Shown: positions 33,298 through 48,649, counted from the first letter of the stretch. The stretch: 64,000 nt of DNA from Minisyncoccota bacterium (GCA_035548815.1 DASZSF010000005.1:115741-179740), one strand, 5' to 3'. Numbers and translations are program-made. The notes: generated by a model from the letters alone, not told the origin.

Positions 33298-34171
33298 CAT
33301 CGAACAAAATATAAAAGATATTGTCGAGTCTGGCGCGACCCCAGATGAGAAGATCTCCTCGCTTAACGACCTGATTGCGGGACTCAGCTTTGTGCATCAG
33401 GTCGCAGAAGCTCGACGTGTCGCGGAAGCAGGTGCGCTTATTGCTGCAAAGGCTGGTAAGACGGAAATGGCAGCACAATTTTGCTTTATGCGTGCAAAGG
33501 CGGAGATTGCAGAAGCAGGCAAATTCATCGGCGAGATGAAAAACATTACTATGGCGATCAACTGGTTCGAGTTCGGGCTTGAGGCAGAGAAAAAACGATT
33601 TAAAGAACTTGATGCAAAACTGCAAACCAACTGGGGCATCACTCAAAAGGTTATGAATATGGGGTATGATTTTATCAATAAAAAACCCTACATTGGCGCT
33701 GGTGCTTATTGCCAGCGAACCGCCGGACAGATATATGGCACTTATTACCTCCAGCTAAAGCTACACTATTTCACAACCGGTCATCCGTGGCGCGCGCGTT
33801 TCGGGAATTATGCGCTGTCTCGTTGGGTCGGCATAGATGACTTGTTCATTCTCAGTAAGAAATCTCGCGCTCACCTGCGAAGTGTTAAACGAGACTGTCT
33901 CAAGTCTCTCCATCAAGCAAAGCGTCTGTTTAAACAAATAAAAGCATATGATTACCTTGTTGAGACATACTTTGACCTCGCGCTGGAACACCATTCATTC
34001 AATGACTCTCTCCGCAGTAAGTTTTATCTCTGGTGGGGATGGTTGTTAATGAAATGGCACCGACTTCAGGAGCCACGCCTCGCAGAAAGCTTCGCGTCAC
34101 TTCGCGAATTGCCACTCATCGGAAGCAATCGTGACGGCAGACCTATGGATGAGCTGCAACCGCAGCTGTAA
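33284..34171 (+). CDS. hypothetical alpha-helical protein translationally coupled to DUF4238 gene
   Basis: ATG 33284 overlaps upstream stop by 14 nt; 295 aa, no recognisable domain. Confidence 0.5.
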   Translation: MPNDNIEQNIKDIVESGATPDEKISSLNDLIAGLSFVHQVAEARRVAEAGALIAAKAGKTEMAAQFCFMRAKAEIAEAGKFIGEMKNITMAINWFEFGLEAEKKRFKELDAKLQTNWGITQKVMNMGYDFINKKPYIGAGAYCQRTAGQIYGTYYLQLKLHYFTTGHPWRARFGNYALSRWVGIDDLFILSKKSRAHLRSVKRDCLKSLHQAKRLFKQIKAYDYLVETYFDLALEHHSFNDSLRSKFYLWWGWLLMKWHRLQEPRLAESFASLRELPLIGSNRDGRPMDELQPQL

Positions 34172-34175
34172 TCTT

Positions 34176-35543
34176 CTAATTGTCTTGGTCTATCGTCACA
34201 ATTCCTTTTGTGATTTTGAGCTTTGATTTGAAACATCCCATCAACTCGCGCTTCTCCTGGTCCGTCCCTTCCTTCAGCGTGTACTTCGCATAGGTTTTGA
34301 GATCTACTTCGTCGTGCGTTTTTGAGGCGCTGGACATACCCAACACTGCTCGTTGGAATTTGTTAAAGCGCTTTAGCTCTTCCTCAAACTTGTGCTGAAT
34401 GCCGATGCCATTGAGGTCGATTTGGTCGAGTGCTTTTATCATCTGGTCGATTAGTTCCTCCTCGCGCAGGTAGGTATTCTTGCAGTGCAGATTACGCGCT
34501 CGCCCGCAGCCGTAATAGATATACTTTCGCATCGTACCGTCTTTGAGCTGTTTGTACTTTTCCTCCGCGCTGAACATTGATCCGCACAGTCCGCAGGTGA
34601 CGAGCTTGGTAAACGCGAACTCGTGGCTTTGGCGCACAATGCTATCGCGCTTGAGTTGGGCCTGCACCGCATCAAAGAGTTCTTTGGTGATGAGCGGCTC
34701 GTGCTTGCCCTGATACCAATTGCCGGAGTTTTTCGGGTACTCGAACGTGCCGTAATAGAAATGATTGGTGAGCGTGCGATATACGTTGCCGCAGGTAAGC
34801 GGCTTGTTGCCGGTTGTATGAAAGTTTAAGTCGAACCTAAGCCAGTGGTAGACGCGACGGCCCGACCACTTTTCGTAAGCAACCTTCTCAAACATTTTCT
34901 TGATAACTGGTCCTCGCTCCGGATCGACAATCACCTGACATTTTTTGTCCATCATTTTTTGTGTCAGATATCCAGTGGGCGGCGTAGTTGGCCACAAGCC
35001 CATTTCGACCCTCGTTCGCAAACCGCGCTTAACATTGATTCCACGATTATCGTTTTCGAGCTTCGCTTGTGACCCGAGAATCATCAACAGGAACTTCTCG
35101 TTCGGGTTATTGCGGAAGCTCTGGCTGTATGTCCGAATTTCCTGCAAGCCTCCGGAGTCCATCAAATCCACGACCTTGCCGAGGTCGCCTGCGTTGCGCG
35201 AAATTCTATCAGCTGCCCATGTCAAAATTCCGTTGTATTTGCCAGCTTTGATCTCCTCGATAACTTCATTGAAGACTGGTCGCTGACCCGTCTCTTTTGC
35301 AGAGTGCGATTCGCGCTTCATCGCGACCACCTCTAGGCCTTCTCGCTCGGAGAGCTGTAGCATTTCCTTTATCTGCGAATCAATCGAAAGCACCTGTCGC
35401 TCTTCCGATTCGGTGCTCTTTCTCGCATAGAGGCAATACCTCACTTTTACCGCCTCTGGTACGACCTGTTTGCCAATAATACCCACGGCCCTTGTTGTAG
35501 TTTCCATACCCCAAGGGATGACGCTGACGCCTATGGGAGTCAA
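34176..35543 (-). CDS. large serine recombinase (resolvase/integrase family with recombinase domain and zinc ribbon)
   Basis: catalytic region YARKSTESEERQVLSIDSQ, ...RISRN; C-terminal CGLCGS...YYGCGRARNLHC. Confidence 0.85.
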   Translation of the reverse strand: MTPIGVSVIPWGMETTTRAVGIIGKQVVPEAVKVRYCLYARKSTESEERQVLSIDSQIKEMLQLSEREGLEVVAMKRESHSAKETGQRPVFNEVIEEIKAGKYNGILTWAADRISRNAGDLGKVVDLMDSGGLQEIRTYSQSFRNNPNEKFLLMILGSQAKLENDNRGINVKRGLRTRVEMGLWPTTPPTGYLTQKMMDKKCQVIVDPERGPVIKKMFEKVAYEKWSGRRVYHWLRFDLNFHTTGNKPLTCGNVYRTLTNHFYYGTFEYPKNSGNWYQGKHEPLITKELFDAVQAQLKRDSIVRQSHEFAFTKLVTCGLCGSMFSAEEKYKQLKDGTMRKYIYYGCGRARNLHCKNTYLREEELIDQMIKALDQIDLNGIGIQHKFEEELKRFNKFQRAVLGMSSASKTHDEVDLKTYAKYTLKEGTDQEKRELMGCFKSKLKITKGIVTIDQDN

Positions 35544-35595
35544 GAGCGTCCCCAGAACCTAGCTGTTGGTAACTTAAACAAGCTGGAGCCTATAT

Positions 35596-36123
35596 TTAAA
35601 GATTCTTCAATATAAAATCTGCCCGCTCTTCCGGCGGCAGTACAGGCACGTGTACAACCGGTGATGGCAGTGATTCATAAACTTCAGTAATGAAGTCGTG
35701 GATTTGCTTCTGTGCGGCCGCGTCTTCGGTGCGGGCGTAGTCATTCACTAGCGGCAATGGATCTAAAATGAAAACCTTTTTATATGATGCCTTCCTCATC
35801 GCCAACAGGATTTTGCCGTCTTCGGGGAGATTAGTAAATCGATAATATGCTAAAGCGTCAGGGATTGCCCGATCAAGAAAAACGACTTCGTTCGGTGAAA
35901 GTTCCCGCTCTTGTGCGATCTGCATACCAAGCACACCTTGCTGAAAAGCCAGCTGGTTTTGCCTAATCTCTTCTACAGTTTTACCCGTGATTCGTTGTGT
36001 ATCAATAAAATGCCGTGCATGCTCAATCGTGGTCTTGTAGCCACGTTCTTTGAGAAGGTTTACCGTAGTTGTCTTACCGGAGCCCGGGCCTCCAGTTATT
36101 ACGTACCAGTTCGTTGCGTCCAT
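35596..36123 (-). CDS. P-loop NTPase / predicted kinase (AAA_28/NadR-like)
   Basis: Walker A ITGGPGSGKTT, Walker B VVFLD. Confidence 0.55.
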   Translation of the reverse strand: MDATNWYVITGGPGSGKTTTVNLLKERGYKTTIEHARHFIDTQRITGKTVEEIRQNQLAFQQGVLGMQIAQERELSPNEVVFLDRAIPDALAYYRFTNLPEDGKILLAMRKASYKKVFILDPLPLVNDYARTEDAAAQKQIHDFITEVYESLPSPVVHVPVLPPEERADFILKNL

Positions 36124-36392
36124 TAGCCGATTTTATGTGATCCACTCCAGTTATAGCAATGCGCGAAGCAATATCCCAATACAAAACCAAAAATGACACT
36201 GGCAATAATGCCTTCAACCCACGCCTGTACTGAACCAAGAGGGGCGGCCGTGAACAGAGCGAGCCACATATGTGTGAACTGTGCCCCAGGCAAAATAATC
36301 TGTGCAATGGCACATAGTACGAACGCGACAACCAAGGTGCCAGCGAGTGCGATACCAGTCCGAACCGTCGACAATCGAGTAATGTTTTCCAT
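36123..36392 (-). CDS. small 2-TM membrane protein
   Basis: 89 aa hydrophobic; start overlaps kinase. Confidence 0.4.
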   Translation of the reverse strand: MENITRLSTVRTGIALAGTLVVAFVLCAIAQIILPGAQFTHMWLALFTAAPLGSVQAWVEGIIASVIFGFVLGYCFAHCYNWSGSHKIG

Positions 36393-36424
36393 AAAATTTA
36401 TTAATTTCTAAATAATGTCGGCAA

Positions 36425-36553
36425 CTACTTCTTAGAAATCTGCTGCCAGAGCCAGATTCCCACTAGCACTAGATCAACGAGGACAACAATCCACGTGAGT
36501 AGGCCGAAGACACCTGCGCCGCCCATCATCCCCTCATATCCATAACCCATCAT
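36425..36553 (-). CDS. tiny glycine-zipper membrane peptide (42 aa), below ORF-track cutoff
   Basis: MMGYGYEGMMGGAGVFGLLTWIVVLVDLVLVGIWLWQQISKK read from minus strand. Confidence 0.25.
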   Translation of the reverse strand: MMGYGYEGMMGGAGVFGLLTWIVVLVDLVLVGIWLWQQISKK

Positions 36554-36624
36554 AATATGTAATTGTTATTTTTTTAATAATCTCGACCTAAGCACATGGT
36601 ACCGCTGACGGCCACTTTACACAA

Positions 36625-36641
36625 ATACCCCATGGGGGTAT
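36625..36641. promoter_or_regulatory. CsoR operator (GC-rich pseudo-palindrome) 10 nt upstream of csoR
   Basis: ATACCCC-ATG-GGGGTAT near-perfect inverted repeat, resembling known CsoR operators (TACCC...GGGTA). Confidence 0.6.
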
Positions 36642-36650
36642 CATAAGGTC

Positions 36651-36923
36651 ATGAAAGTAGACGCGAAAAGAAAGGTACTCCGTCGCCTCAGTCTAATCCG
36701 GGGCCAACTCAACGGCCTTATCAAAATGGTAGATGCTGAACGCTACTGCGTCGACATCATTACGCAATCGAGCGCGATTAAGGAGGCACTTTCAGGAGTG
36801 GAAGACGTCATGCTCGAAAACCATCTCACGACGCACGTTATAGACCAGATCAAATCAGGGAGGAGTAAGAAGGCGGTCGAAGAGATATTGAAAGTTTATA
36901 AGTTAGCACAAAAGAAAAAGTGA
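36651..36923 (+). CDS. csoR: copper-sensing repressor CsoR (CsoR/RcnR DUF156 family)
   Basis: VLRRLSLIRGQLNGLIKMVDAERYCVDIITQSSAIKEAL...HLTTH; conserved Cys and His ligands. Confidence 0.85.
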   Translation: MKVDAKRKVLRRLSLIRGQLNGLIKMVDAERYCVDIITQSSAIKEALSGVEDVMLENHLTTHVIDQIKSGRSKKAVEEILKVYKLAQKKK

Positions 36924-36924
36924 T

Positions 36925-37131
36925 ATGAAAAATACCACCGTGCGTTGGGTAATTATTGGTCTACTTATAGTCGCAGGAGTTTATCTCGCTGTTGACCACG
37001 GTCAGCATATTGCGCCCTATTTGCCATTTGCTTTTTTGTCAGGCTGCCTTTTTATGCACCTGTTCGGCCACGGAGCACATGGTCATCATGGGAACCATGG
37101 CGGGCATGAGCATGAAGACGCAAAACAATGA
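36925..37131 (+). CDS. DUF2933-like small membrane protein with His-rich tail (metal-resistance associated)
   Basis: TM then CLFMHLFGHGAHGHHGNHGGHEHED. Confidence 0.5.
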   Translation: MKNTTVRWVIIGLLIVAGVYLAVDHGQHIAPYLPFAFLSGCLFMHLFGHGAHGHHGNHGGHEHEDAKQ

Positions 37132-37967
37132 AAAATATTTTAATCACCAAAGCATCTGGCGAACGTGAGGCATTTTCGGAGTCGAAATTGCGCCGCTCTC
37201 TACAGCGCGTGCACGCACCTTCAAATCTTGTAGACGAAATCGTCGCCCAGATCGAGACTGAATTGAGCGAAGGTATGAATACGTCGGAGATATATCGGAA
37301 AGCGTTTTCTCTGCTCAGGAAAAAAGCGAGACCTGTCGCGGCACGCTACAGTCTTAGAAGCGCACTAATGGAATTGGGACCGACCGGCAGGCCATTCGAG
37401 CGCTTTGTGGGTGAGCTTTTGAAGTCGGAGGGATTTGCCGTAGAAGTAGCGAAGATTGTGCCAGGAGTCTGCATCAAGCATGAAGTTGATGTCGTCGGCA
37501 CCAAAGGAGATCGACATATTATGGTGGAATGCAAATTTCATAATCAACCCGGATTGCGATCGGACGTAAAAATATCGCTCTATGTACAGGCTCGATTTGA
37601 GGATATCGAGCGCCAATGGAAGAAACAACTGCATCACGGAGAGAAATTCCACGAAGTATGGCTTGTCACTAATACGAAACTTACTTCTGATGCCACTGAT
37701 TATGCGAAATGCGTCGGGATGCATGCTATTGGCTGGAATTATCCTGCCACTGGCAGCTTGGAAGAGCTAATTGAGCAGCATAATCTCCATCCTTTGACAT
37801 GTCTAACGCGTCTGAATCGTTTACAGAAACAAGAACTTTTAAAACAAGGGCTCATTCTTTGCACTGATCTCCTAGAGGAACGAGACACTTTGCAGAAAAT
37901 TGTTGGAACTTCCGTGCGTGTAGATGAAATAGTGCAAGAGGTAAAGAAGCTACTAAAAATCGTATGA
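37128..37967 (+). CDS. ATP-cone domain fused to Mrr-like (restriction endonuclease-fold) nuclease domain
   Basis: N-terminal KASGEREAFSESKLRRSLQRV (ATP-cone); central ERFVGELLKSEGFAVEVAKIVPG...HEVDVVGTKGDRHIMVECKFH (Mrr_cat D-x-E-x-K). Confidence 0.65.
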   Translation: MKNILITKASGEREAFSESKLRRSLQRVHAPSNLVDEIVAQIETELSEGMNTSEIYRKAFSLLRKKARPVAARYSLRSALMELGPTGRPFERFVGELLKSEGFAVEVAKIVPGVCIKHEVDVVGTKGDRHIMVECKFHNQPGLRSDVKISLYVQARFEDIERQWKKQLHHGEKFHEVWLVTNTKLTSDATDYAKCVGMHAIGWNYPATGSLEELIEQHNLHPLTCLTRLNRLQKQELLKQGLILCTDLLEERDTLQKIVGTSVRVDEIVQEVKKLLKIV

Positions 37968-38215
37968 AAGAATTAGAACGCCGATCCTTCAATAATTTCA
38001 TGCAGGCGGGGCTCGTTGGATTTACGATGCTCGGCTTCTTACTTACGTCGCTTAAGATGCCCCAATATGGCGTCGTTGCGAATTTAATCTCAGAAGTCTT
38101 CTGGCTATACAGCACGTACAAGGCGTGGAAAGAAGCAAATCAGGTTGGCATGTTTATAAACACCCTGATTGTGACGGCAATCCTCATTTTTGGAGTTATC
38201 AACTATTGGCTCTAG
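37964..38215 (+). CDS. small 2-TM membrane protein
   Basis: 83 aa, overlaps neighbours by 4 nt. Confidence 0.4.
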   Translation: MKELERRSFNNFMQAGLVGFTMLGFLLTSLKMPQYGVVANLISEVFWLYSTYKAWKEANQVGMFINTLIVTAILIFGVINYWL

Positions 38216-38226
38216 CAATATAAATT

Positions 38227-40428
38227 ATGAATCACGACGACCACAAAAATCACAAACACAGAGCCCATGGCATGGAGCAATACACCTGCCCGATGCATCC
38301 TGAAGTAATAAAACATGAGCCGGGCAAATGTCCGGGATGCGGCAAGGATTTGATTCCCAAGGAAAAGGGGGTAGGCGGTGAACATGCCGGGCACGATATG
38401 TCGAAAATGAGCCACATGGATCACGAGGCAGCGATGACGAACCCACAGATGGCGAAGGCAATGGAGGCCGATATGCGCCGCCGGTTCTGGATTTCATTCG
38501 TACTCTCGATACCCATTTTCTTGTATTCGCCCGTCGGCGTGAACCTGTTGAAGCTCCATCTGCCCGCGCCGATACCGGTCAGCTGGATACTCTTCATCCT
38601 CACGACACCGATAGTTTTCTGGACCGGCTCCATATTCATCACGGGCACGTACTACTCGCTCAAAGCCAAGAAGCTCAACATGGCGGTCTTGATCGCGACA
38701 GGCGTCCTTGCCGCGTACCTCTTTAGCGTGCTTCTCACGCTGATACAGCCTGCGAGCGAGACGTTCTACGAAGCCGCCGCGCTTCTTGTCACCTTCGTTC
38801 TTTTTGGGCATTGGATGGAGATGAAATCCCGCAAAGGCACATCGGACTCGCTCCGAGCCCTCTTTGATCTGGTACCGCCTCAGGCCCGAGTCATCCGCGA
38901 CGGAAAAGAGATGAGCATACCGAGCGCGGAAATAATCAAGGGGGACGTCGTCGTGTTGCGTCCTGGCGACAAAGTGCCGGTTGACGGAGAAATCATTGAG
39001 GGTGATTCATCGATCGATGAATCACTTGTGACCGGCGAATCCATCCCTGTCTCGAAGGCGAAAGGAGACAAAATAGTGGGAGGTTCGGTCAACCTCACCG
39101 GCGCGGTGCAATTCAAGGCGACAAAAGTCGGCGCGGATACTGTCTTGGCACAGATCATCAAGATGGTAGAGACTGCACAGAACTCCAAAGCGCCCGGGCA
39201 GCGTATCGCCGACAAGGCTGCCGCCATTCTGGTGGTGGTCGCCATTGGCTCCGGACTTGCCGCATTCTTTGGCTGGTATTTCTTCGGAGGTGCGGGACTT
39301 CTCGCCGCCCTTACCTTTGCCGTATCGACTGTTGTCATTGCATGCCCTGATGCATTAGGGCTCGCGACGCCAACAGCCGTTGCGGTGGGCACCGGCTTGG
39401 GTGCCAAGCACAACATTCTCATCAAAGATGCCGCAACGCTTGAAAATACTTCCAAACTCAATGCTATCGTGCTTGATAAGACAGGTACGCTCACCGAAGG
39501 GAAACCGAAAGTAACCGAGGTTGTTTCCACAAATTCTTATACCAAAGAGGACGTGCTTGCATACGCGTCTGCCGTTGAGCGGAACTCGAATCATCCCATT
39601 AGTCTCGCGATTATCAACGAAGCATCGAAGCGTAGCGTGTCCATCGAGAAGAAAGTCGAGAAATTTGAATCAATCGGCGGTCATGGCGTGCGTGCTGTTG
39701 CCGATGGCAAGACGGTCATTGCGGGCACTGAGCGCTTGATGAAGCAAAGCACTATTGATCTCTCACCACTCAAAAAGGAAATCGACCGTCTGCTTGGCAC
39801 AGGCAACACCATCAGCATCGTCGCGATTGACGGCAAGGTGGCGGGTGCCATCGGCGTCGCAGACACGGTACGTGAATCCGCACAGAAAACAGTATCCAAA
39901 CTAAAAGATATGGGTTTGGAAGTCGTCATGATCACTGGCGATCACGAACAGGTCGCTAAGGCAGTTGCAGGACAGCTTGGGATTGAACGCTACTTCGCAC
40001 AAGTGCTTCCTGAGGAGAAAGCGAAGTACGTGAAGAAGTTGCAAGACGAAGGTAAAAACGTAGCAATGGTCGGTGACGGCATCAACGATGCACCTGCCTT
40101 GGCGCAATCCGATATCGGCATCGCGATTGGTGCAGGCACCGACGTCGCCATCGAGACCGGCAACATCGTCCTGATGAAGTCCGATCCTTACGACATCGTG
40201 GCCGCCATCCGATTGTCTAAAGCAACTGTCACGAAGATGAAACAGAATCTATTTTGGGCTGCTATCTACAATGTTCTCGCAATTCCCGTGGCCGCAGGAG
40301 TTTTCTACTCAAGCTTGGGTTGGTCATTGCGACCTGAAATTTCCGCACTCCTCATGTCCGCTTCCTCAATCATCGTTGCTACAAACGCGGTTCTGCTCAA
40401 ACGGGTGGAGCCGCGCTTGAAGGAATGA
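38227..40428 (+). CDS. copA: heavy-metal (probably copper) P1B-type ATPase; TM6 motif CPD instead of CPC; N-terminal TRASH/YHS-like CPMHP...CPGCG
   Basis: TGES, IACPDALGLATP, DKTGTLT, GDGINDAPAL, 8 TM. Confidence 0.9.
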   Translation: MNHDDHKNHKHRAHGMEQYTCPMHPEVIKHEPGKCPGCGKDLIPKEKGVGGEHAGHDMSKMSHMDHEAAMTNPQMAKAMEADMRRRFWISFVLSIPIFLYSPVGVNLLKLHLPAPIPVSWILFILTTPIVFWTGSIFITGTYYSLKAKKLNMAVLIATGVLAAYLFSVLLTLIQPASETFYEAAALLVTFVLFGHWMEMKSRKGTSDSLRALFDLVPPQARVIRDGKEMSIPSAEIIKGDVVVLRPGDKVPVDGEIIEGDSSIDESLVTGESIPVSKAKGDKIVGGSVNLTGAVQFKATKVGADTVLAQIIKMVETAQNSKAPGQRIADKAAAILVVVAIGSGLAAFFGWYFFGGAGLLAALTFAVSTVVIACPDALGLATPTAVAVGTGLGAKHNILIKDAATLENTSKLNAIVLDKTGTLTEGKPKVTEVVSTNSYTKEDVLAYASAVERNSNHPISLAIINEASKRSVSIEKKVEKFESIGGHGVRAVADGKTVIAGTERLMKQSTIDLSPLKKEIDRLLGTGNTISIVAIDGKVAGAIGVADTVRESAQKTVSKLKDMGLEVVMITGDHEQVAKAVAGQLGIERYFAQVLPEEKAKYVKKLQDEGKNVAMVGDGINDAPALAQSDIGIAIGAGTDVAIETGNIVLMKSDPYDIVAAIRLSKATVTKMKQNLFWAAIYNVLAIPVAAGVFYSSLGWSLRPEISALLMSASSIIVATNAVLLKRVEPRLKE

Positions 40429-40488
40429 GTCGTACCCGGTCGAGGTACGATGAAGGTAGAGATTAAAAAAAAATAAACCAATCAACAT

Positions 40489-40707
40489 ATGAAATTCTCA
40501 AAATTAATGCATGTAGCCAGCGTTGTAGTGGGGTTTGCAGGCGTGTTCGTGTTCATCGTTACCGTTGTCGGGGGCGATGCTAACATCTTCGGTATTACAA
40601 AAATGGACGCACTCGCTTGTGCCGCCATTCTTATACTCATCGCAACTTGGACTCAGATCGCGACTATCCATCACATGATGCTTGAACGCAAAGGTGAACT
40701 TATCTAG
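40489..40707 (+). CDS. small membrane protein
   Basis: 72 aa, 2 TM. Confidence 0.35.
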   Translation: MKFSKLMHVASVVVGFAGVFVFIVTVVGGDANIFGITKMDALACAAILILIATWTQIATIHHMMLERKGELI

Positions 40708-40709
40708 CC

Positions 40710-41354
40710 ATGTGCTTCTCGGCCACAGCAAGCTTCGTAGCAGGTGGAACGTTGTCGGCAGCAGGGGCTCTTACTCTTACTCAAGCGAAAACTAAGAAAG
40801 AGCTCCCATTCGCCGCAATACCGCTCTTGTTTGGCGTGCAACAGACTATCGAAGGATTCGTGTGGCTCTCATTCGGCTCTGCATTCTGGAATGTCGCACT
40901 GACATACGCGTACTCGATGTTCTCGCACGTATTGTGGCCGATATTCGTTCCCATTTCAGTTTTGCTACTAGAGACAGACCCAACCCGAAAGAAGATCCTG
41001 CGATCCTTTTCGGTTATTGGTGCGGCGGTGGGACTATACCTTCTATACTTCATCATCGTTGATCCGGTGACGGCGCATGTCGTTAACCACAGCATCGCGT
41101 ATCACTCGCCGCACTTTTATGCTCTTCCGACAATGTTTCTTTATTTGATCGCGACATGTGGTAGCTGTCTTGCGTCGAGCCATAAAATCATCAAAGTGTT
41201 CGGGGTCGTGCTTCTTACTTCGTTCGCTATCGCCGCGTGGTTCTACACCGAAACATTCTTCTCGGTTTGGTGTTTCTTCGCAGCAATTCTTAGCGTTATC
41301 GTCTGCTGGTATTTCAGGAATAAAAATATGCAAAAATCTCACGTTTCGGTATAA
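40710..41354 (+). CDS. hypothetical 6-TM membrane protein
   Basis: 214 aa hydrophobic. Confidence 0.45.
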   Translation: MCFSATASFVAGGTLSAAGALTLTQAKTKKELPFAAIPLLFGVQQTIEGFVWLSFGSAFWNVALTYAYSMFSHVLWPIFVPISVLLLETDPTRKKILRSFSVIGAAVGLYLLYFIIVDPVTAHVVNHSIAYHSPHFYALPTMFLYLIATCGSCLASSHKIIKVFGVVLLTSFAIAAWFYTETFFSVWCFFAAILSVIVCWYFRNKNMQKSHVSV

Positions 41355-41361
41355 TCGATCT

Positions 41362-41772
41362 ATGCGAAGTTTTTACCCGTATCTAAAGATATTCATTGCG
41401 ACCGCGCTCCTCGCATTTCTTCTCTTTGGCTCTGCGGGAGCGATGCATTTTGGCATGAATATGGGAGCAGATGGCAAGATGGCTCCTTGCCCGTTCTCTG
41501 GCGAAGGGGCGATTTGCACCATGAATCCGCTTGAGCACATCGCCGCATGGCAGAATGCATTTACCACGACAGTCCAAAACGAGCGCGATATTGCTTTTCT
41601 CCTCATCGCCCTCACACTCCTTTTCACCGTCGGCTTTTGGCGAGAGCTTTTTACAAAACGAGACTTACGCTCGTTGCAGAAGTGGCATAGCGTCCTGCGC
41701 GAGGAGTTCAGTATCTTCGACCCGCTCCAAGAAGCGTTTTCAAACGGCATCCTAAATCCAAAAGTATTTTAG
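41362..41772 (+). CDS. hypothetical small membrane/exported protein with CPFSGEGAIC motif
   Basis: ATG 41362 in-frame within ORF 41158..41772. Confidence 0.4.
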   Translation: MRSFYPYLKIFIATALLAFLLFGSAGAMHFGMNMGADGKMAPCPFSGEGAICTMNPLEHIAAWQNAFTTTVQNERDIAFLLIALTLLFTVGFWRELFTKRDLRSLQKWHSVLREEFSIFDPLQEAFSNGILNPKVF

Positions 41773-41812
41773 GTAGGCACTCCTCGCCGCGTCATTCGTC
41801 GCGGATTATTCG

Positions 41813-42547
41813 GTGCTATCTAATCTACTCATGGAAACAACACAAGAATCTAAAAGTATCGTATCGACTCCTGTCGCTATTATCATCGCAGGAGTCATCA
41901 TCGCTGGCGCGGTCATCTTCGCGACAAAGCAACCCGCCGCTCAACCGGCCGCGGCTAACGCTCAACCGCAAGCCCCAGTCGCCGTCGATGTAAGTAAAGT
42001 TAAAACCGACAGCGAGCCGTTCATCGGCAACGCCAATGCGCCCGTAACCATGGCCTACTGGTACGATTACCAATGCCCATTCTGCCAGCGCAACGAAGAG
42101 GATACGATGCCGCAGATCGTTAAAAATTATGTCGATACCGGCAAGCTCAAGGTCGTGTTCAAGGATTACGAATTTCTTGGCCCCGACTCGCAAACGCTCG
42201 GACAGTTTTCCCGCGCCGTATGGGCCGTCGCTCCCGACAAATTCTATCAATGGCACAAAGCCATCTACGACAACCAGGGTACCGAGAATACCGGCTGGGC
42301 GACGCAGAACAAGATTCTCTCGATTACTACTAGTGTGCTTGGTGCCGGCGACACAGCAAAAGTGGCTGCGTTCGTGAAGAGCAATGGAGCCGAGTATCAG
42401 AAAGCAATGGATGCGGATAAAGCTGAAGGCACGGCCATGGGCATCAGCGGCACTCCCGGCGCAATCATCGGCAAGCAGTTAATCTCCGGAGCGCAGCCAT
42501 ACGCGGCATTCCAAGCGGCGATAGATGCGGCTCTGAAAAACCAGTAG
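41813..42547 (+). CDS. DsbA-family thiol:disulfide oxidoreductase (thioredoxin fold)
   Basis: N-terminal TM; CPFC active site in YDYQCPFCQRNEE. Confidence 0.75.
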   Translation: MLSNLLMETTQESKSIVSTPVAIIIAGVIIAGAVIFATKQPAAQPAAANAQPQAPVAVDVSKVKTDSEPFIGNANAPVTMAYWYDYQCPFCQRNEEDTMPQIVKNYVDTGKLKVVFKDYEFLGPDSQTLGQFSRAVWAVAPDKFYQWHKAIYDNQGTENTGWATQNKILSITTSVLGAGDTAKVAAFVKSNGAEYQKAMDADKAEGTAMGISGTPGAIIGKQLISGAQPYAAFQAAIDAALKNQ

Positions 42548-42551
42548 ACCT

Positions 42552-43214
42552 ATGCGTACTCAATATGTTCCTGTCCTCATCATCGCTCTCGCGGTGCTCG
42601 TAGGCGGATATCTTATCGCAAGATCGCATACGCCGGTCGCCAATGCGGAAGTTGCCGCAGAGTATGCAAAGATCCCGACAGCGAGCGGCAAAGCGCTCTT
42701 CATGGCGCAGAGCAAAAATCTGACAGAGAGTGTCGACCCAACCATTGTCGATCTCGATTCCCAGCTCATCACCTGCGCTCCGAATGTTGATAGCTTGCTC
42801 TCAACAAATCCTTCAATCGGCGGCAGTTGTGTTGCGGACGGCATGAATCTTGCTTCGACCACTGGTATGTATTTAGGCGGTCAGTGCTGCGGTCCCATGA
42901 AAGACCTTACGGAGTACAACGAAGAATTAAAAAATCTACAGCAGTACAAAGACATTCCCGACGTGCCGATGAATCCGTACAAGACATCGATTGGGATTGC
43001 GAAGAAATGGATCGACTACGACAACGCCACCATGCTCACACCGCAAGAACAAGTGGTCATGGATCAGGCGATGAAAACGTCGAAAGAAGGTCCGTGCTGC
43101 TGCAAGTGTTGGCACTACTTCGTCAATGAGGGCATCGCAAAAAAAATGATCAAAGATTACCACTACAGTGCGCAGCAAATCGCCGCGTATTGGGATACGT
43201 CGAGTATCTGTTAA
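42552..43214 (+). CDS. hypothetical secreted Cys-rich protein
   Basis: GGQCCGPMKD, EGPCCCKCWHY motifs; in copper cluster. Confidence 0.45.
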   Translation: MRTQYVPVLIIALAVLVGGYLIARSHTPVANAEVAAEYAKIPTASGKALFMAQSKNLTESVDPTIVDLDSQLITCAPNVDSLLSTNPSIGGSCVADGMNLASTTGMYLGGQCCGPMKDLTEYNEELKNLQQYKDIPDVPMNPYKTSIGIAKKWIDYDNATMLTPQEQVVMDQAMKTSKEGPCCCKCWHYFVNEGIAKKMIKDYHYSAQQIAAYWDTSSIC

Positions 43215-43226
43215 CTAAATAACATT

Positions 43227-43682
43227 ATGAAAACAATCATTATTACTACCGCAGCCGCGGTACTGCTTCTTGTTGGCGGCACGTTGTGGTCGAAGAGTAT
43301 CTCAAACAGCGACCCTAATGTCGTCGCCTCAGGCGGCATACATTGGCACCCGCAGCTCACGATCTATATCAAGGGCGTGAAGCAAGATATTCCAGCGAAC
43401 CTCGGCATCGGTCCGCAATTCGCGGGCACCAACGGTTACGATCCGCAAATGCAGATGGCGGCTGTACACACCCACGAGGATCTTCCGCTCATTCATCTCG
43501 AATTCATGAGCGGTCCCGTACGCAAAGAAGATGTCACGCTCGGCCAATTCTTCAAGATATGGGGCAAGGACATGCATTCACTTGGTACGAACATGCGCAT
43601 GATGGTCAACGGTAAAGCGAACACCGATTACGAGAATTACGTCATGCATGATGGAGATAAGATAGAATTGAATTATGACTAA
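43227..43682 (+). CDS. hypothetical membrane-anchored protein (His-containing, possible metal binding)
   Basis: IHWHP, HTHED; no family recognised. Confidence 0.4.
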   Translation: MKTIIITTAAAVLLLVGGTLWSKSISNSDPNVVASGGIHWHPQLTIYIKGVKQDIPANLGIGPQFAGTNGYDPQMQMAAVHTHEDLPLIHLEFMSGPVRKEDVTLGQFFKIWGKDMHSLGTNMRMMVNGKANTDYENYVMHDGDKIELNYD

Positions 43683-45255
43683 GAAATATCTCTACATTGC
43701 CATAATTGCTGTGGTAGTCATTGCCGGCATCGTTCTCTACCAAAAATCTCCGCTTGCCGTATCAGCGTATGTCAGTACCGATGTCGTCGGACTGTCGGAG
43801 GTAAAAGCGCCCGAGACTGTTGAGCTAAAGAATGGCGATACCTACACACTCACAGCAAGTTATGTCTCAAAAAACATCAACGGCATGAACTACCGAATGC
43901 TTGCGTACAATGGATCGATTCCTGGGCCTGTAATCAAAGTTCCGCAAGGAGCACGGGTAACCATCAACTTCAAGAACGATACCGACATGCCGACCCTGCT
44001 CCACTCGCACGGCGTGCGGATGGATAATCAATTTGACGGCTCGCAGACATCGCAAGACCCGATACCGCCGGGCGGCTCGTTCGCGTACACGCTCAAATTC
44101 CCAGACGCTGGTATGTACTGGTACCACCCGCATGTGCGCGAGGACCTTGAGCAGGAACTTGGTCTCTACGGCAACTTTCTGGTCGTGCCAACCGATGGCA
44201 ATTATTGGGACCCTGTAAATCAGGAGGTGCCGCTTACGCTCGATGACATTCTCATCCAGAACGGCAAGATTGATTTGAGCAAACAAGCAGCTGACCACAC
44301 GCTCATGGGCCGCTACGGCAATGTCATGCTCGTGAATGGGCAGACAGATTACTCACTTTCAGCAAAGAAAGGAGAAATCGTCCGCTTCTACATCACTAAC
44401 GTGGCAAACGCTCGGCCGTTCAACTTTGCGATTGAGAGCGCGAAACTCAAGCTGGTCGGTTCTGACGGCGGTGCGTATGAGCAAGACCAATGGAAGGACT
44501 CGGTAGTCATTGGGCCCTCGGAGCGCGCCATCGTCGAAGTCCTTTTTGACAAAAGCGGCACGTTCGCCATCGAAAACAAAACACCGGACCAAACCTATAC
44601 AATTGGCTCCGTAGCGGTGTCTAATGAGTCAGCGTCCGTCTCGTACGCAAAGGAGTTCTCCGTGCTCAAAACGCATACTGCAACAGTAACGAGCATCGAC
44701 CCTCTACGTTCCTACTTCGACAAAGCGCCTGACAAGAAAATTGCCATCTCAATCACCATGAACGGAGCACCCGCACAAATGCAGATGAGTATGGGAGGAG
44801 GCCACATGATGCCGGACGGCACCATGATGGGTGGCTCGATGATGAGCACGAGCCCCGATGGTATCGAATGGAACGACACAAACATGATGTCTGGTGGCAT
44901 GTCTACAACTGATAACGTGAAGTGGACAATCACCGATCAGGATACGGGGAAGGTGAACAGCGATATCAAGTGGACGTTCAAAAAGAATCAACCGGTGAAG
45001 ATTGAAATATACAATGACCCGCATTCAATGCACCCGATGCAGCATCCCATTCACTTCCACGGCCAGCAGTTCTTGGTACTCTCAGTCAACGGAGTAAAAC
45101 AAACAGACTTGGTGTGGAAAGACACCGTGCTCGTGCCGTCTGGTCAAACGGTCGACATTCTTCTATATCCGACAAATCCGGGCACATGGATGGCACACTG
45201 CCACATCGCCGAGCATTTGGAGGACGGGATGATGTTCACGTATACGGTGGAATAG
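43675..45255 (+). CDS. multicopper oxidase (CueO/laccase-like) with Met-rich insert
   Basis: Cu sites HSHG, HPHV, HPIHFHG, HCHIAEHLEDGMM; Met-rich MQMSMGGGHMMPDGTMMGGSMMS. Confidence 0.9.
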   Translation: MTKKYLYIAIIAVVVIAGIVLYQKSPLAVSAYVSTDVVGLSEVKAPETVELKNGDTYTLTASYVSKNINGMNYRMLAYNGSIPGPVIKVPQGARVTINFKNDTDMPTLLHSHGVRMDNQFDGSQTSQDPIPPGGSFAYTLKFPDAGMYWYHPHVREDLEQELGLYGNFLVVPTDGNYWDPVNQEVPLTLDDILIQNGKIDLSKQAADHTLMGRYGNVMLVNGQTDYSLSAKKGEIVRFYITNVANARPFNFAIESAKLKLVGSDGGAYEQDQWKDSVVIGPSERAIVEVLFDKSGTFAIENKTPDQTYTIGSVAVSNESASVSYAKEFSVLKTHTATVTSIDPLRSYFDKAPDKKIAISITMNGAPAQMQMSMGGGHMMPDGTMMGGSMMSTSPDGIEWNDTNMMSGGMSTTDNVKWTITDQDTGKVNSDIKWTFKKNQPVKIEIYNDPHSMHPMQHPIHFHGQQFLVLSVNGVKQTDLVWKDTVLVPSGQTVDILLYPTNPGTWMAHCHIAEHLEDGMMFTYTVE

Positions 45256-45580
45256 TCCTCCTATCCCACCTCAAGACCCTTAAGAGCCTCCTTGTTGGCA
45301 AACCCCCTTCGCAAATCCCTGGGGTCTGCTAGGGTGCAAAGCGATAGCATAAAGTGCTATCATGTTCGTGCACAACTAAATATAAGCCGACCTAACCCCT
45401 CAGGCCTCAAAACCTCAGGATATGGTCGCAAATCCCGCTAGAGATCAAAGGACTCCTGGTCAGAGTCACTCTAGCGGGTCGTATCGGGAAACCGGTACGG
45501 GCTCGGCCGAAAGGTCGGGTCGCGATGGCCAGGAGCCTTTTGATTAGGGCTCACTCCGTCGATAAAACCCGCTAGAATTC

Positions 45581-46516
45581 ATGGAAGAAATCGCCCCCAA
45601 GAAAAAGGGTAACGTTCTCAAATGGATAGGTATCGTGTTAGGCGTTTTGGTACTTCTCGCCATTATCAGCGCAGCTGGTTCCAGTTCCTCGTCTTCGGGC
45701 GGAAGTGCTACTGTGCCGTCCGATACGGGGATTTGTGGTACTAATCCGCAGGCGCTAAAAAAAGAAGCGTTTGTTCCAAATTATAAACAGCTCGCAAAGG
45801 ATCCGAGCGTATCTCAAGGCACCGTTGCCACGTTCACCGGTCAGATAGTGCAGATTGAGCAAAGCGGCAATGAAGGCATCATGCGTCTTTCCGTCACGAA
45901 AGAATCGTACGGTTGGAGTCTTAGCGATATCGTGTACGTAACGTATCATCAGGCGACGAATGCCGTCGACGGTGACGTTGTCTCCGTTACGGGGAAATTA
46001 ACCGGAAGCCAAACATATACGTCGCAGGCAAACTTTCAGATCACTATACCGAGCATTGATGTTTGCACCGTCGATACAAAACCGGTCGTATCAGCTCAAA
46101 CGACAACTCCCAAATCAAAGACGACCACACCGACTCCAAACACTTCTTCAAATCAGTCGAGCCAGCAAACTTACACTACTCCGAGTGGCGCGACAGTGAA
46201 CAATAGCGGTAATGTCGTCACGCCGCCGCCTGCGCCTCCGGCATCGTGGCACACGGTACAGACTTTCAGCGGCCAGACGCAAAAGAACACCGCTCCATTT
46301 ACCATTCAAGGGTCGCAGTGGCGAATTAGCTGGCAAGAAACGGGCGATGGTTACTTTGGTGCCAACGCGCAGAGTCCCGATGGAAGCAACTATTGCTCCA
46401 TCGCCAATCTGGTCGGTTCCGGCTCCGACTCTACGTACTGCTATGGCTCTGGGACGTATTACGTCTCGGTCAATACCGCAAATTCTTGGACGATCACCGT
46501 CGAAGACTACTACTAG
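45581..46516 (+). CDS. hypothetical membrane-anchored Thr/Pro-rich protein
   Basis: TM after Lys-rich N-terminus; low-complexity linker. Confidence 0.45.
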   Translation: MEEIAPKKKGNVLKWIGIVLGVLVLLAIISAAGSSSSSSGGSATVPSDTGICGTNPQALKKEAFVPNYKQLAKDPSVSQGTVATFTGQIVQIEQSGNEGIMRLSVTKESYGWSLSDIVYVTYHQATNAVDGDVVSVTGKLTGSQTYTSQANFQITIPSIDVCTVDTKPVVSAQTTTPKSKTTTPTPNTSSNQSSQQTYTTPSGATVNNSGNVVTPPPAPPASWHTVQTFSGQTQKNTAPFTIQGSQWRISWQETGDGYFGANAQSPDGSNYCSIANLVGSGSDSTYCYGSGTYYVSVNTANSWTITVEDYY

Positions 46517-48231
46517 TGTCCTCGCACTCGCTGTCGCATAAGTTGGCCGTACACCTGTAGATTGTATTGGCTCATTCGTCTCGCCTCATCCTCGGCTTCT
46601 TTGCGTCTCTGTTCGCGGATGACAGCCGTCTCGAGATCAATCTTGCGCTTGCGCCATTGCTCTTGTGCGGAGAACCATTCCTGATTCGGAATCCGTCCTT
46701 GCATCCACGCCTGTCTGACATCGGCGAGCCACAGATCATTCTTTCGCAATTCGTTTTCATCTGCGGTGCCTGATAACGCGGGCTGCGACGGGAATACAAA
46801 TCCCGGCTCTGTGATTTTCGACATTATCATGTGTGCCGCGATGGCGAACGCATCGACAAGATCGTCGTGTCGTTCCGCACCGAAGTTCACGAGTTGGAGA
46901 ATTAGCTCCTCGCACCCGTGCTCGGGGAAAACGATAATACCTTCTTGAATAAGGTGCGTGATGAGCGTCAATCGCTGGCGCTTATCCTGTCCATATACCT
47001 TGAATTCTTCGGCAGGAAAACCGTCATGCCGCAGGTCCTGCGGCATTGCTCTTTGATATTGCACGGATTCGATATAGAGCGAGGTCGGGTGGCCGTTCCC
47101 CAGATAGCGCGAAAGCATTTTGAGCTTCGCACGCGCCTCGGGGAATAGGAGGCGGTCGTTGAGCGGGTATTGGTGTACGTACGCTTTCCACGCGCCTTCT
47201 CTGTTGCGGAAAAGCGAAATTGAGACGGCGGCCGTGCAATCCGCCTTCGTATCTTCCGTGATGGCTAGATCGACGCCGGTTAAAGTGACGAAGAAATCAG
47301 GGTTGCCCTCAATCGAGGGCATGTCCGCGTAGCGTTGAATCCACTCGCGCTTCACGACCGATTCTTCGTCGTCGATGATTTTCAGAAGATACTCTCGCGA
47401 CCACGTCTGTATGCTGGGCACCGTTTTACGAAGGGCTTCAATCGCCGCCGTATCAGGGAATTTCGAGAACCATGCGATCTTGCCATCCTCGATCAACGGA
47501 TACGACTTGAAAATGCCATCAAGCTGATCCTCGTCGATATCACGCCGCAAGCGCATGATGATCCCGTCGTCATGCAATCGTGTGCCGATCACGACGACTC
47601 TGGTGCCAAGGTCGCCCATAGGCACGATGTCTCCAAAAAGTTGTGTGTACAGCTTGTCCCGATTTTCTTTTACCTTCACCGACGTGAGGTCTTCGAGGTC
47701 GTCGAACACCATCAGGTCCGGCCGGAATGAGCCGTGCTTGATGCCACGAATCGATGTGTCGAGCGACACGGCGGTGATACGCGCGTCGTACTTTGGAATG
47801 ACGATGGACGTCTGCCGCCACTCGTCGTCTGGCTCATCGAACGGTCCCAGTTCGCTTTTGAGCAATTCGTTGTCAGTGAGTTCATCGGTGATGTTTTTCA
47901 TCGTTTGTCGCGCCTGCTGCTGCGTCTTGCAGACGATGAGCACGAATTTTTTCTGCTGGACGCCGATGATCGACCAGATAGGAAGGCTCGTGGCCATGAT
48001 CGTGCTTTTGGCGCTGCCACGGAACGCCTCGACGACCAGAAATTTCTTACCTTGATCCTGTGTGAGCGCGAAGAGTTCCTTTTGAAACGGCGCGGTCTTG
48101 TACTTGGCGTGGTGGCCGAGAAATGCATGGAAGAAGAACAGATGACTACGCCGCGCCGCCTCCCGACGCAGCTTCTTGTTCGTTCTGATTTGCTCCAACT
48201 CCGTCGGAGCCTTTTGCTGAATCTTTTTCAT
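46513..48231 (-). CDS. phage terminase large subunit
   Basis: Walker A EAFRGSAKST, Walker B LMVFDDLED, C-terminal RNase-H-like nuclease acidic residues (DLAITEDT ... HDDLVDAF); ATG 48231 preferred over TTG 48285. Confidence 0.8.
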   Translation of the reverse strand: MKKIQQKAPTELEQIRTNKKLRREAARRSHLFFFHAFLGHHAKYKTAPFQKELFALTQDQGKKFLVVEAFRGSAKSTIMATSLPIWSIIGVQQKKFVLIVCKTQQQARQTMKNITDELTDNELLKSELGPFDEPDDEWRQTSIVIPKYDARITAVSLDTSIRGIKHGSFRPDLMVFDDLEDLTSVKVKENRDKLYTQLFGDIVPMGDLGTRVVVIGTRLHDDGIIMRLRRDIDEDQLDGIFKSYPLIEDGKIAWFSKFPDTAAIEALRKTVPSIQTWSREYLLKIIDDEESVVKREWIQRYADMPSIEGNPDFFVTLTGVDLAITEDTKADCTAAVSISLFRNREGAWKAYVHQYPLNDRLLFPEARAKLKMLSRYLGNGHPTSLYIESVQYQRAMPQDLRHDGFPAEEFKVYGQDKRQRLTLITHLIQEGIIVFPEHGCEELILQLVNFGAERHDDLVDAFAIAAHMIMSKITEPGFVFPSQPALSGTADENELRKNDLWLADVRQAWMQGRIPNQEWFSAQEQWRKRKIDLETAVIREQRRKEAEDEARRMSQYNLQVYGQLMRQRVRGH

Positions 48232-48649
48232 GGTTATTTTCTTTATCGTTAGTAACGCTGGTAATCTCCACTGTCTCGCTTTCAAGCATCGCGAGCCCGC
48301 GTTCTACGAGCGCATCCTGCTCAGCGTCCAACGCCTCACGCTCTTCTGGGGTACGCGCGGTGATCTCGAGTTTGTCTTTGAACTTCGGGTTGCGGTGCCG
48401 CAGCCAGAATTGGATCGATGGATAATGGCGCTCCAACATGAGGGAATACAGTTGATTCTCGCCGAGGTCGTTCAGCATCGCCTCGCCCTCGGCGAGCGCG
48501 TCTTCCATTGCTTTGCGGAATTCCTCGTCTTCATCGCGCCACTTGTACACGGTCGAGCGTGCGACGCCAACTTGCTCGACGGCGGCCTGAATATTCGGGA
48601 TCTTTTTCAGATGTTCGAGAAACAAGTCTTTGATGCGATCTTTTTTCAT
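48146..48649 (-). CDS. putative terminase small subunit / HTH DNA-binding protein
   Basis: MKKDRIKDLFLEHLKKIPNIQAAVEQVGVARSTVYKWRDEDEEF HTH; immediately upstream of large terminase, 3' overlap. Confidence 0.5.
   Translation of the reverse strand: MKKDRIKDLFLEHLKKIPNIQAAVEQVGVARSTVYKWRDEDEEFRKAMEDALAEGEAMLNDLGENQLYSLMLERHYPSIQFWLRHRNPKFKDKLEITARTPEEREALDAEQDALVERGLAMLESETVEITSVTNDKENNHEKDSAKGSDGVGANQNEQEAASGGGAA

Follow-up and report, generated by a model that had tools for sequence, protein, structure and literature searches.

A predicted CsoR-controlled copper-detoxification operon in Patescibacteria, probably carried in a terminase/serine-recombinase element beside tRNA-Ser

We analysed a 64,000-nucleotide (nt) stretch of DNA from a Minisyncoccota bacterium (GCA_035548815.1 DASZSF010000005.1:115741-179740), called the window throughout and numbered from its first letter, whose proteins find their best matches in Patescibacteria, for example Paceibacterota and Kaiserbacteria. 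It probably contains a 12-gene copper-detoxification operon, repressed by CsoR, that occupies the variable slot between the large terminase subunit (TerL) gene and the recombinase gene of an integrative element of about 18 kb beside tRNA-Ser(GGA). As far as our searches show, a copper operon as cargo of a capsid-less terminase/serine-recombinase element in bacteria of the candidate phyla radiation (CPR) has not been described in the literature searched.

The operon consists of 12 co-oriented genes on the plus strand, from csoR to a multicopper oxidase, with intergenic gaps of -8 to +60 nt. A preliminary description of this DNA had reported DUF2933, DsbA-like and Cys-rich genes in a co-oriented string that ends in a multicopper oxidase with a Met-rich insert; all of these genes are present on the plus strand, and the oxidase closes the string. 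Scans for terminators and promoters within the operon gave counts equal to chance and were not used to subdivide it. The promoter and the genes are, in order:

36616-36644, plus strand: promoter-like site (TTTACA, 17 nt, TATCAT) with the CsoR box at 36625-36641
36651-36923, plus strand: CsoR-family repressor (PF02583, E 5e-24)
36925-37131, plus strand: DUF2933 membrane peptide with a His-rich C-terminus (PF11666, E 1e-11)
37128-37967, plus strand: ATP-cone and Mrr-like nuclease-fold protein (PF03477, PF04471)
37964-38215, plus strand: membrane protein of 83 amino acids (aa)
38227-40428, plus strand: P1B ATPase, CPD subtype (E1-E2_ATPase, Hydrolase and HMBD domains; TIGR01511, 571.6 bits)
40489-40707, plus strand: 72-aa membrane protein
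40710-41354, plus strand: DUF6629 membrane protein (PF20334, E 1e-35)
41362-41772, plus strand: 136-aa protein with two transmembrane segments and a CPF...C motif
41813-42547, plus strand: DsbA-like protein (Thioredoxin_4, E 9e-26; DSBA, E 1.5e-12)
42552-43214, plus strand: Cys-rich anchored protein, 220 aa, 9 Cys
43227-43682, plus strand: His-cluster anchored protein, 151 aa, with an invariant His/Glu set
43675-45255, plus strand: three-domain multicopper oxidase (three Cu-oxidase Pfam domains)

The operator ATACCCCATGGGGGTAT at 36625-36641 (ATACCCC-ATG-GGGGTAT), described earlier as near-perfect, is a perfect inverted repeat (7+7, spacer of 3 nt). With up to 2 mismatches allowed, the window contains no other match, and shuffles lead one to expect 0.09 occurrences. 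Within a sigma-70-like site (TTTACA at 36616, TATCAT at 36639-36644) the box takes up the spacer and extends into the -10 hexamer, and it ends 9 nt before the csoR ATG at 36651; the csoR-operon transcript is probably leaderless or nearly so. The box is identical to the Corynebacterium glutamicum CsoR box, ATACCCCnnnGGGGTAT, quoted in PMC5057107. We scanned 80 genome loci that encode close relatives of the ATPase (1.47 Mb; individual loci are given L numbers below) and found 25 occurrences of ATACCCC-N3-GGGGTAT at up to 2 mismatches, about 19 of them directly upstream of a csoR homologue and 7 exactly 26 nt before the start codon. In these related loci, the core TACCC-N5-GGGTA lies upstream of all 17 CsoR homologues with at least 48% identity, which is the conservation upstream of csoR orthologues by which the preliminary description had proposed to judge the operator.

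The regulator matches PF02583 with 84.9 bits against a cut-off of 22.8, and its best PDB match is Mycobacterium tuberculosis CsoR. In a gap-free alignment to that protein (2hh7), C33, H58 and H62 replace C36, H61 and C65, and the second-shell residues Y32 and E78 align with Y35 and E81. The ligand fingerprint is x-C-H-H, not the canonical x-C-H-C, and is the same as that of Thermus thermophilus CsoR (3aai); C-H-H ligands were found in 16 of the 17 homologues with at least 48% identity and in 29 of 36 overall in the related loci. The N-terminus, MKVDAK, is without the N-terminal His of RcnR-type proteins. A review regards the x-C-H-H subgroup of CsoR proteins as probably Cu(I)-sensing and possibly more promiscuous (PMC11672702). 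A second CsoR subgroup was also observed, consisting of x-C-H-H paralogues of 90 aa (93 aa in L012) with 36-47% identity and without TACCC...GGGTA within 160 nt; its loci are L006, L009, L010 (5180), L012, L027, L030, L050, L055, L068, L069, L073 and L079, and L010 holds both CsoR types.

The sixth transmembrane segment (TM6) of the ATPase reads C373-P374-D375, CPD instead of CPC as described earlier; the other motifs are D417KTGT, N674-X6-YN-X4-P in TM7 and P703-X6-M-X2-SS-X5-N in TM8. CPD, DKTGT and the TM7 and TM8 motifs are present in all 120 of the nearest homologues (75-100% identity), and CPC in none of them. The N-terminus has 11 His in its first 70 residues, the motif YTCPMHPEV...PGKCPGCG and an HMBD domain (PF19335), which is found in 82 of the 120 nearest homologues; Pfam gave no match to an HMA (GMxCxxC) domain in the ATPase, and HMBD alone was found at the N-terminus. 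The preliminary description was thus correct that CPMHP...CPGCG replaces GMxCxxC, but its use of the motif as a hint of a non-classical subgroup does not stand: the motif is the Pfam HMBD domain, and we ruled it out as the mark of a new subgroup because Legionella CopA (3rfu), an archetypal P1B-1 pump, has the same motif (CPMHP...CPxCG).

In a neighbour-joining tree (160 sequences, 694 columns, rooted on Escherichia coli ZntA), all 14 CPD sequences, the one SPD sequence and all six CPH sequences are united in a single clade (bootstrap 98), and 137 CPC sequences fall outside it; among these are E. coli CopA and the additional pumps, of CPC type, that Patescibacteria loci encode. The window ATPase groups with Xaut_4847 of Xanthobacter Py2, with low support (22-49) within the CPD group. 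By this placement, outside the CPC (P1B-1) group, the pump is closer to CopB than to CopA and represents a CPD subtype of the CopB-like lineage. The non-classical P1B assignment made in the preliminary description is therefore supported by the tree and by the invariance of CPD in the 120 homologues. The subtype itself is not new: a CPD cluster beside CPH pumps has already been described in Rhizobiales (Cubillas et al. 2017, PMC5552934), the only paper in the literature searched that mentions a CPD motif in a P-type ATPase.

CPD pumps have a wide distribution. Among 1.84 billion cluster representatives, the nearest non-identical matches to the ATPase are CPD proteins, and the next are CPC proteins and a few CPH proteins at 41-49% identity. 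Plasmid-borne relatives with 47-51% identity, all CPD, are Xaut_4847, a Rhodococcus gene and a Meiothermus gene, and CPD relatives were found on plasmids of Deinococcota, Actinomycetota and Alphaproteobacteria. On the Meiothermus plasmid, the CPD gene has multicopper oxidase, CsoR-family and HMA genes as neighbours; on the Rhodococcus plasmid, its neighbours encode a multicopper oxidase, an HMA protein and a second P1B ATPase. CPD ATPases 61-87% identical to that of the window occur in genome records labelled as many different Patescibacteria groups. Others, 65-71% identical, were observed in L051 (labelled Woesearchaeota archaeon, 68%), L033 (a Gammaproteobacteria metagenome-assembled genome, MAG) and L070 (a Bdellovibrionales MAG); their presence in DPANN and non-CPR bins reflects either cross-domain spread or bin contamination. 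Upstream of the CPD-pump locus L078 there is a group I intron match (4895-5109, plus strand, 51.6 bits) that is barely over the gathering score.

The multicopper oxidase has all four copper-ligand motifs, of the patterns HxHG, HxH, HxxHxH and HCHxxxHxxxxM (HSHG at 110, WYHPH at 149, HPIHFHG at 457 and HCHIAEHLEDGM at 508), an N-terminal membrane anchor and a Met-rich segment at residues 360-413, with 13 Met in 54 residues compared to 2.8% Met elsewhere in the protein. Its score against the NCBIfam CueO model (157 bits, E 7.5e-46) is under the equivalog cut-off of 525, and by this measure it is only distantly related to CueO. The DsbA-like protein is of the membrane-anchored thiol:disulfide oxidoreductase type, with the motif C88-P-F-C. 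All 9 Cys of the Cys-rich protein are invariant in 47 homologues (alignment A2). This protein has 339 homologues, every one named 'hypothetical', and no Pfam, NCBIfam or PDB fold match (AlphaFold2 model, pLDDT 92); its family also occurs in records labelled Pacearchaeota (DPANN) and Nitrosopumilales/Nitrosotalea (Thaumarchaeota). The His-cluster protein, with the invariant residues H39, H41, H81, H83, H90 and E92, has no significant PDB match (AlphaFold2 model, pLDDT 90) and is a putative extracytoplasmic metal binder of an uncharacterised family. Both families are widespread in Patescibacteria, and the 72-aa, DUF6629 and 136-aa proteins recur beside the CPD ATPase at other loci. The ATP-cone/Mrr gene, whose product also has an AF1548-like C-terminal domain, overlaps both of its neighbours by 4 nt and has no obvious copper link; homologues of this gene and of the 83-aa protein adjoin the ATPase in L003, L076 and L080.

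Homology suggests how these components would act together. In the absence of copper, a CsoR tetramer would sit on the ATACCCC-N3-GGGGTAT box and, because the box occupies the promoter spacer and the -10 hexamer, would block RNA polymerase. Cytoplasmic Cu(I) bound by C33, H58 and H62 would release CsoR from the DNA and allow transcription of the string from csoR to the oxidase. The P1B ATPase, with its CPD motif and His-rich HMBD N-terminus, would then export cytoplasmic copper, and the anchored Met-rich oxidase outside the membrane would convert Cu(I) to the less toxic Cu(II). The DsbA-like oxidoreductase would maintain disulfides, very probably including those in the neighbouring protein with 9 Cys. 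Candidates for copper binding are the His-cluster protein, DUF2933 and the Met-rich peptide.

As the preliminary description stated, the cluster is located between a recombinase and a terminase. Both are encoded on the minus strand. The features around the operon are:

32142-32229, plus strand: tRNA-Ser(GGA) (ARAGORN; Rfam tRNA, 55.9 bits)
32329-33297, plus strand: DUF4238 protein (PF14022, E 9e-34; PADLOC DUF4238-Pers, E 6e-10)
about 33284-34171, plus strand: hypothetical protein, 295 aa
34176-35543, minus strand: large serine recombinase, an integrase (Resolvase, Recombinase and Zn_ribbon_recom domains; PHROG 95 integrase, E 4.5e-63)
35596-36123, minus strand: AAA_28 NTPase (Pfam), divergent from csoR
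36123-36392, minus strand: DUF5676 protein with two transmembrane segments (Pfam), divergent from csoR
36425-36553, minus strand: Met/Gly-rich membrane peptide, 42 aa, divergent from csoR
45389-45521, plus strand: LOOT RNA (RF03000; 73.3 bits against a gathering score of 46.4, E 2.4e-12)
45581-46516, plus strand: secreted or anchored 311-aa protein (PHROG 26645), convergent with TerL
46513-48285, minus strand: TerL (PHROG 38, E 8e-71; Terminase_6C)
48146-48820, minus strand: helix-turn-helix protein resembling the small terminase subunit, TerS (PHROG 4044, E 5e-12)
48646-49917, minus strand: fusion of a ParB-like N-terminal domain and an N6/N4 DNA methyltransferase (PF01555; PHROG 498, PHROG 620)
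50030-50290, minus strand: 87-aa protein resembling sigma-70 region 2 (PF04542, E 7e-6), heading the leftward terminase module

The 3' end of tRNA-Ser(GGA) faces the 3' end of the recombinase gene, and the element was probably integrated at this tRNA, which would form its left end; in L009 the same tRNA lies 113 nt from a 69%-identical recombinase. The DUF4238 gene and the hypothetical gene at 32329-34171, for which the gene calls were taken from the source record, look like a second cargo slot. The window holds no attachment (att)-like repeat of the tRNA end, so the right boundary of the element is not defined but only estimated. By analogy with L095, where the far end is 885 nt upstream of the ParB-methylase gene, it is probably just past 50290, at about 50.3-50.9 kb. 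The TerS-like gene probably has its true start inside the 48146-48820 open reading frame (ORF), and the only match of the sigma-like 87-aa protein is sigma-70 region 2. Homologues of the divergent island genes (35596-36553) adjoin the CPD ATPase or csoR in L003, L005, L019 and L038, and homologues of the 311-aa protein are found at the same post-TerL position in L089, L090 and L074. A short-read assembly of SRR12170511 breaks in tRNA-Ser (L088 ends at about window position 32175), in the recombinase gene and in the DUF6629 gene (L001 corresponds to 35329-40836); the strains may differ at the borders of the island, or low coverage alone may account for these breaks.

The terminase and recombinase genes belong to a recurrent module. 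Walker A, Walker B and the acidic nuclease residues are invariant in a TerL alignment of six proteins (A1), which we used for a metagenome scan; the element loci comprise 80 metagenomic loci (L089-L168) and loci from IMG/VR (L169-L198). TerL identity across the 80 metagenomic loci is 41-75%. Upstream of TerL, 77 of the 80 have TerS and 63 have the ParB-methylase, and of the 52 loci with 3 kb or more of sequence past TerL, 40 have a recombinase there on the same strand. In about 95 loci the module consists of the ParB-methylase, sometimes a second methylase, TerS, TerL, variable cargo, the serine recombinase and a convergent tRNA; several of these loci are listed as viral contigs in IMG/VR. The gap between TerL and the recombinase is 0.06-6.9 kb in the metagenomic loci, and that of the window, 10,970 nt, is the largest observed. 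Cargo elsewhere is mostly related to defence: type I restriction-modification subunits, SMODS nucleotidyltransferase, NucS-like nuclease and DUF4352.

When ORFs from 99 loci were clustered, the only shared families were the ParB-methylase, TerS, TerL and the recombinase. No portal, capsid or tail family was common to the 99 loci, no replication family (primase or Rep) was among the conserved clusters, and the window between 30 and 64 kb contains no portal, major capsid or tail gene. In IMG/VR, distant TerL relatives (up to 38% identity) are followed by portal and MuF genes, as in real phages. The next most common family, a LexA/CI-like S24 repressor, is encoded in 13 loci, divergently and upstream of the methylase gene; its presence suggests that these elements are induced in connection with the SOS response. 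The window element is without a repressor of its own; a host LexA with LexA_DNA_bind and Peptidase_S24 domains is encoded at 13733-14413 (plus strand).

Location beside a tRNA gene is also shared. In at least 15 loci a convergent tRNA follows the recombinase at a distance of 0.1-2.6 kb, and L009 and the window add two more cases; the targets are mostly tRNA-Ser, and also tRNAs for Gln, Glu, Asp and Asn. In L095, a repeat of the tRNA-Ser(GCT) 3' end (6664-6711 and 19875-19922; 21 nt exact, about 48 nt imperfect) marks the two ends of a 13.2-kb element, and a search for tRNA-end duplications in 12 loci other than that of the window gave L095 as the one clear case and L120 as a possible one. L095 and L096 are on one 313-kb contig (JACCDG010179493.1), where the two elements are at different tRNA-Ser genes; tRNA-Ser(TGA) is about 2 kb beyond the recombinase of the L096 element. 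Single-sequence queries of IMG/VR gave no close relatives of the ATPase or TerL, and an exact-sequence look-up of the window TerL gave no match. Tandem pairs of full-length TerL genes were observed in L074 (16304-19472), L170 (3137-6162) and L198 (3842-6752). A 609-aa ORF at the far end of L009 was tested as a hidden TerL and is not one.

Given an integrase, a tRNA-adjacent location, tRNA-end duplication in L095 and the lack of virion structural genes, all features of phage satellites, we tentatively propose that the carrier may belong to an undescribed phage-satellite-like family of Patescibacteria (CPR). Such elements, with a core of ParB/methylase, TerS, TerL and serine recombinase, would integrate at the 3' ends of tRNA genes, mostly tRNA-Ser, and could package themselves into helper capsids by means of their own terminase and carry cargo in defined slots, most often restriction-modification or other defence genes and in the window the copper operon.

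Several of our results, concerning the carrier as well as the sensor and the pump, weigh against the interpretation of this locus as a CsoR-repressed copper operon carried by an element. The GC content of 36425-45255 (0.503, compared to 0.515 for the window), its GC content at third codon positions and its tetranucleotide and dinucleotide distances are within the spread of other window segments; the contrast in GC and codon usage that the preliminary description had suggested as a sign of transfer gave no signal. Direct and inverted repeats over 31.4-53.6 kb did not exceed chance, nor did local alignments of the tRNA region with 49.9-51.5 kb and other junctions, and a search of the window for the tRNA 3' end with mismatches found no copy over chance. 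TerL is within 10 kb of the CPD pump in 4 of the 80 ATPase-centred loci (L044, L052, L058 and L074, all with TerS and the ParB-methylase); the recombinase is also present in L044, L052 and L074 but not in L058, and L064 has only the methylase and L009 only the recombinase. In L044 and L160 the copper genes are on the far side of the recombinase, and in L052 and L074 they are upstream of the methylase gene, so the operon and the element may share an integration hot spot instead of being true cargo and carrier. Among the 80 TerL-centred loci, one has hyp137-, DsbA- and ATPase-like genes, one has a distant CsoR homologue, and three have only P-type ATPases of about 25% identity. One interpretation, which we consider possible but doubtful, is that the terminase and recombinase are remnants of a decayed prophage and that the copper island, as an independent insertion or an old chromosomal locus in the same tRNA hot spot, is no longer part of a mobile unit. 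The lack of att repeats and of a compositional difference favours this interpretation, as do the differing positions of copper genes relative to the module and L009, where tRNA-Ser, the recombinase and copper genes occur together and 18 kb of sequence contain no TerL. However, the same intact four-gene set recurs in about 95 loci with divergent TerL proteins whose catalytic motifs are invariant, a pattern not left by random decay. Portal, capsid and tail genes are not shared, with portal and MuF appearing only after TerL proteins of at most 38% identity, and the window operon lies physically between the TerL and recombinase genes of the module, in the variable slot of the family. We favour cargo of an integrative element; the lateral acquisition that the preliminary description called probable is supported, and refined, by the recurrent element architecture, and the operon was probably not inherited vertically as a core locus.

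The identity of the metal and the class of the pump can also be questioned. Because Asp replaces the second Cys of the pump motif and His the second Cys of the sensor, the operon could sense and export another metal, such as Cu(II), Zn(II), Cd(II) or Co/Ni, which we regard as unlikely. Cu, Zn and Cd have all been reported as effectors of T. thermophilus CsoR (PMC5057107; PMC11672702). CPD stands in place of the soft-ligand CPC, three of the four ligand positions of the x-C-H-H sensor agree with RcnR (H-C-H-H), the NCBIfam RicR, RcnR and FrmR models score CsoR similarly and each under its cut-off, and a cation-diffusion-facilitator gene (50574-51188, plus strand), a second metal-efflux gene, lies outside the operon and just past the element. 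Yet CsoR is without the RcnR-type N-terminal His and has the copper-specific second-shell pair Y32 and E78, the pump has TM7 and TM8 signatures of the copper-pump type, and a Met-rich enzyme resembling cuprous oxidases closes the operon; the box is of what we take to be the CsoR type (TACCC...GGGTA), not the RcnR type. More improbable still, in our estimation, is that the ATPase is a divergent CopA (P1B-1) in which CPD is a lineage quirk without classificatory meaning. Its TM7 (NX6YNX4P) and TM8 (PX6MX2SSX5N) motifs fit the P1B-1 signature exactly, it passes the NCBIfam copper IB1 cut-off (TIGR01511), and its best full-length PDB matches are Legionella and Archaeoglobus CopA; furthermore, the clade with bootstrap 98 comes from a neighbour-joining tree with CPH sequences recognised by motif, not from maximum likelihood on curated references. 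The PDB offers no full-length CopB, however, and for the isolated ATP-binding domain CopB is slightly ahead of CopA (227 versus 221 bits). TM8 reads MSASS (CopB consensus MSxST), in its first half as CopB and in its last residue as CopA. CPD is fixed in all 120 homologues and in plasmid relatives from three other phyla or classes, the tree separates CPD and CPH from all 137 CPC sequences, and the lack of an HMA domain is accompanied by a His-rich N-terminus, as in CopB.

Most components of the operon resemble known systems. As in the CsoR operons of M. tuberculosis (cso), Bacillus subtilis (copZA) and C. glutamicum, a PF02583 repressor comes first in an arrangement of the autoregulated type, a GC-rich inverted repeat covers the promoter and a P1B copper pump is encoded downstream; T. 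thermophilus CsoR shares both the C-H-H ligands and the Y/E second shell. Unlike those operons, the window operon is found in a Patescibacteria host, has no CopZ gene, has a CPD instead of a CPC pump and is much longer (12 genes), with an oxidase, a DsbA-like protein and uncharacterised membrane or secreted proteins. The CPD pumps of Rhizobiales (cluster VIc of Cubillas et al. 2017, e.g. Xaut_4847) share CPD, YN(X)4P and MS-x-SS with the window pump, and like it are sister to or mixed with CPH pumps; the group is often plasmid-borne. The window pump is 47-51% identical to these, has MSASS instead of MSGSS and about 730 aa instead of about 820 aa; its N-terminus is His-rich, whereas VIc pumps have few His, and the Patescibacteria clade adds the zinc-ribbon-like HMBD domain. 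With CopB (P1B-3) it shares the His-rich N-terminus and the clustering with CPH sequences (bootstrap 98), but it has CPD, not CPH. The oxidase shares with E. coli CueO the three cupredoxin domains, the four motifs and a Met-rich segment before the C-terminal domain. In contrast to CueO, which is encoded by a separate CueR-regulated gene and exported by Tat, it has a membrane anchor or Sec-type signal and is in an operon with the pump.

The carrier also has counterparts. The Staphylococcus aureus copB-mco and copXL loci combine a CopB-lineage pump and a multicopper oxidase on mobile DNA and confer copper hyper-resistance (PMC5947656), a likeness drawn from their description. Those loci are carried by SCCmec or plasmids and have other regulators and accessory genes, whereas the carrier in the window is a terminase/serine-recombinase element. 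Phage satellites (PICI, cf-PICI, PLE, PICMI and marine VEIMEs) share with the window element a small, tRNA-adjacent integrative form, an integrase and packaging genes, and PLEs and VEIME module 3 have a large serine recombinase, as here. Defence cargo, a LexA/CI-type repressor in some family members and the lack of capsid or tail genes within 10 kb are further points in common. PICIs usually carry TerS only, and cf-PICIs carry a whole capsid module. The family described here has both TerS and TerL but no capsid genes, a conserved ParB-like/methyltransferase fusion and no recognised replication module.

Other features of the window bear less directly on the operon. The LOOT RNA, a candidate structured RNA, starts 134 nt past the oxidase stop codon, and a second copy is present in L010 (18041-18175, plus strand, 54.3 bits) about 440 nt downstream of an oxidase homologue. 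We rejected the idea that LOOT is a constant component of either the element or the copper island, since among 16 loci scanned it occurred only in the window and L010 (the 15 others were without it). Core genes to the left of the region are rnj, a gene for an SBP_bac_5 protein, secG and groES-groEL. A 1686-aa protein with C1q-like and glycine-rich domains, encoded at 53768-58828 (plus strand), is probably a surface protein.

Patescibacteria have minimal genomes, and their metal homeostasis has hardly been described. The operon presented here is a well-supported case of CsoR-controlled copper defence in this group. Its parts are of known kinds, namely a CsoR regulon, a CopB-lineage CPD pump and a Met-rich oxidase, and the carrier is the more interesting lead. 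CPD pumps form a large, conserved, widely exchanged and little-studied clade that bears on the role of the transport-site Asp in metal selectivity. The 9-Cys and His-cluster families are abundant and uncharacterised, with confident models and no solved relatives, and both are candidate extracytoplasmic copper-handling proteins. According to a 2025 preprint, it is unknown whether satellites of viruses of CPR bacteria exist (10.1101/2025.02.15.638363). If our tentative proposal is true, the element family would provide concrete candidates for such satellites, and the element would be a vehicle that spreads metal resistance and defence genes among ultra-small bacteria, which the 61-87% identity of the pump across CPR-labelled records and its 68% identity in a DPANN-labelled record would fit.

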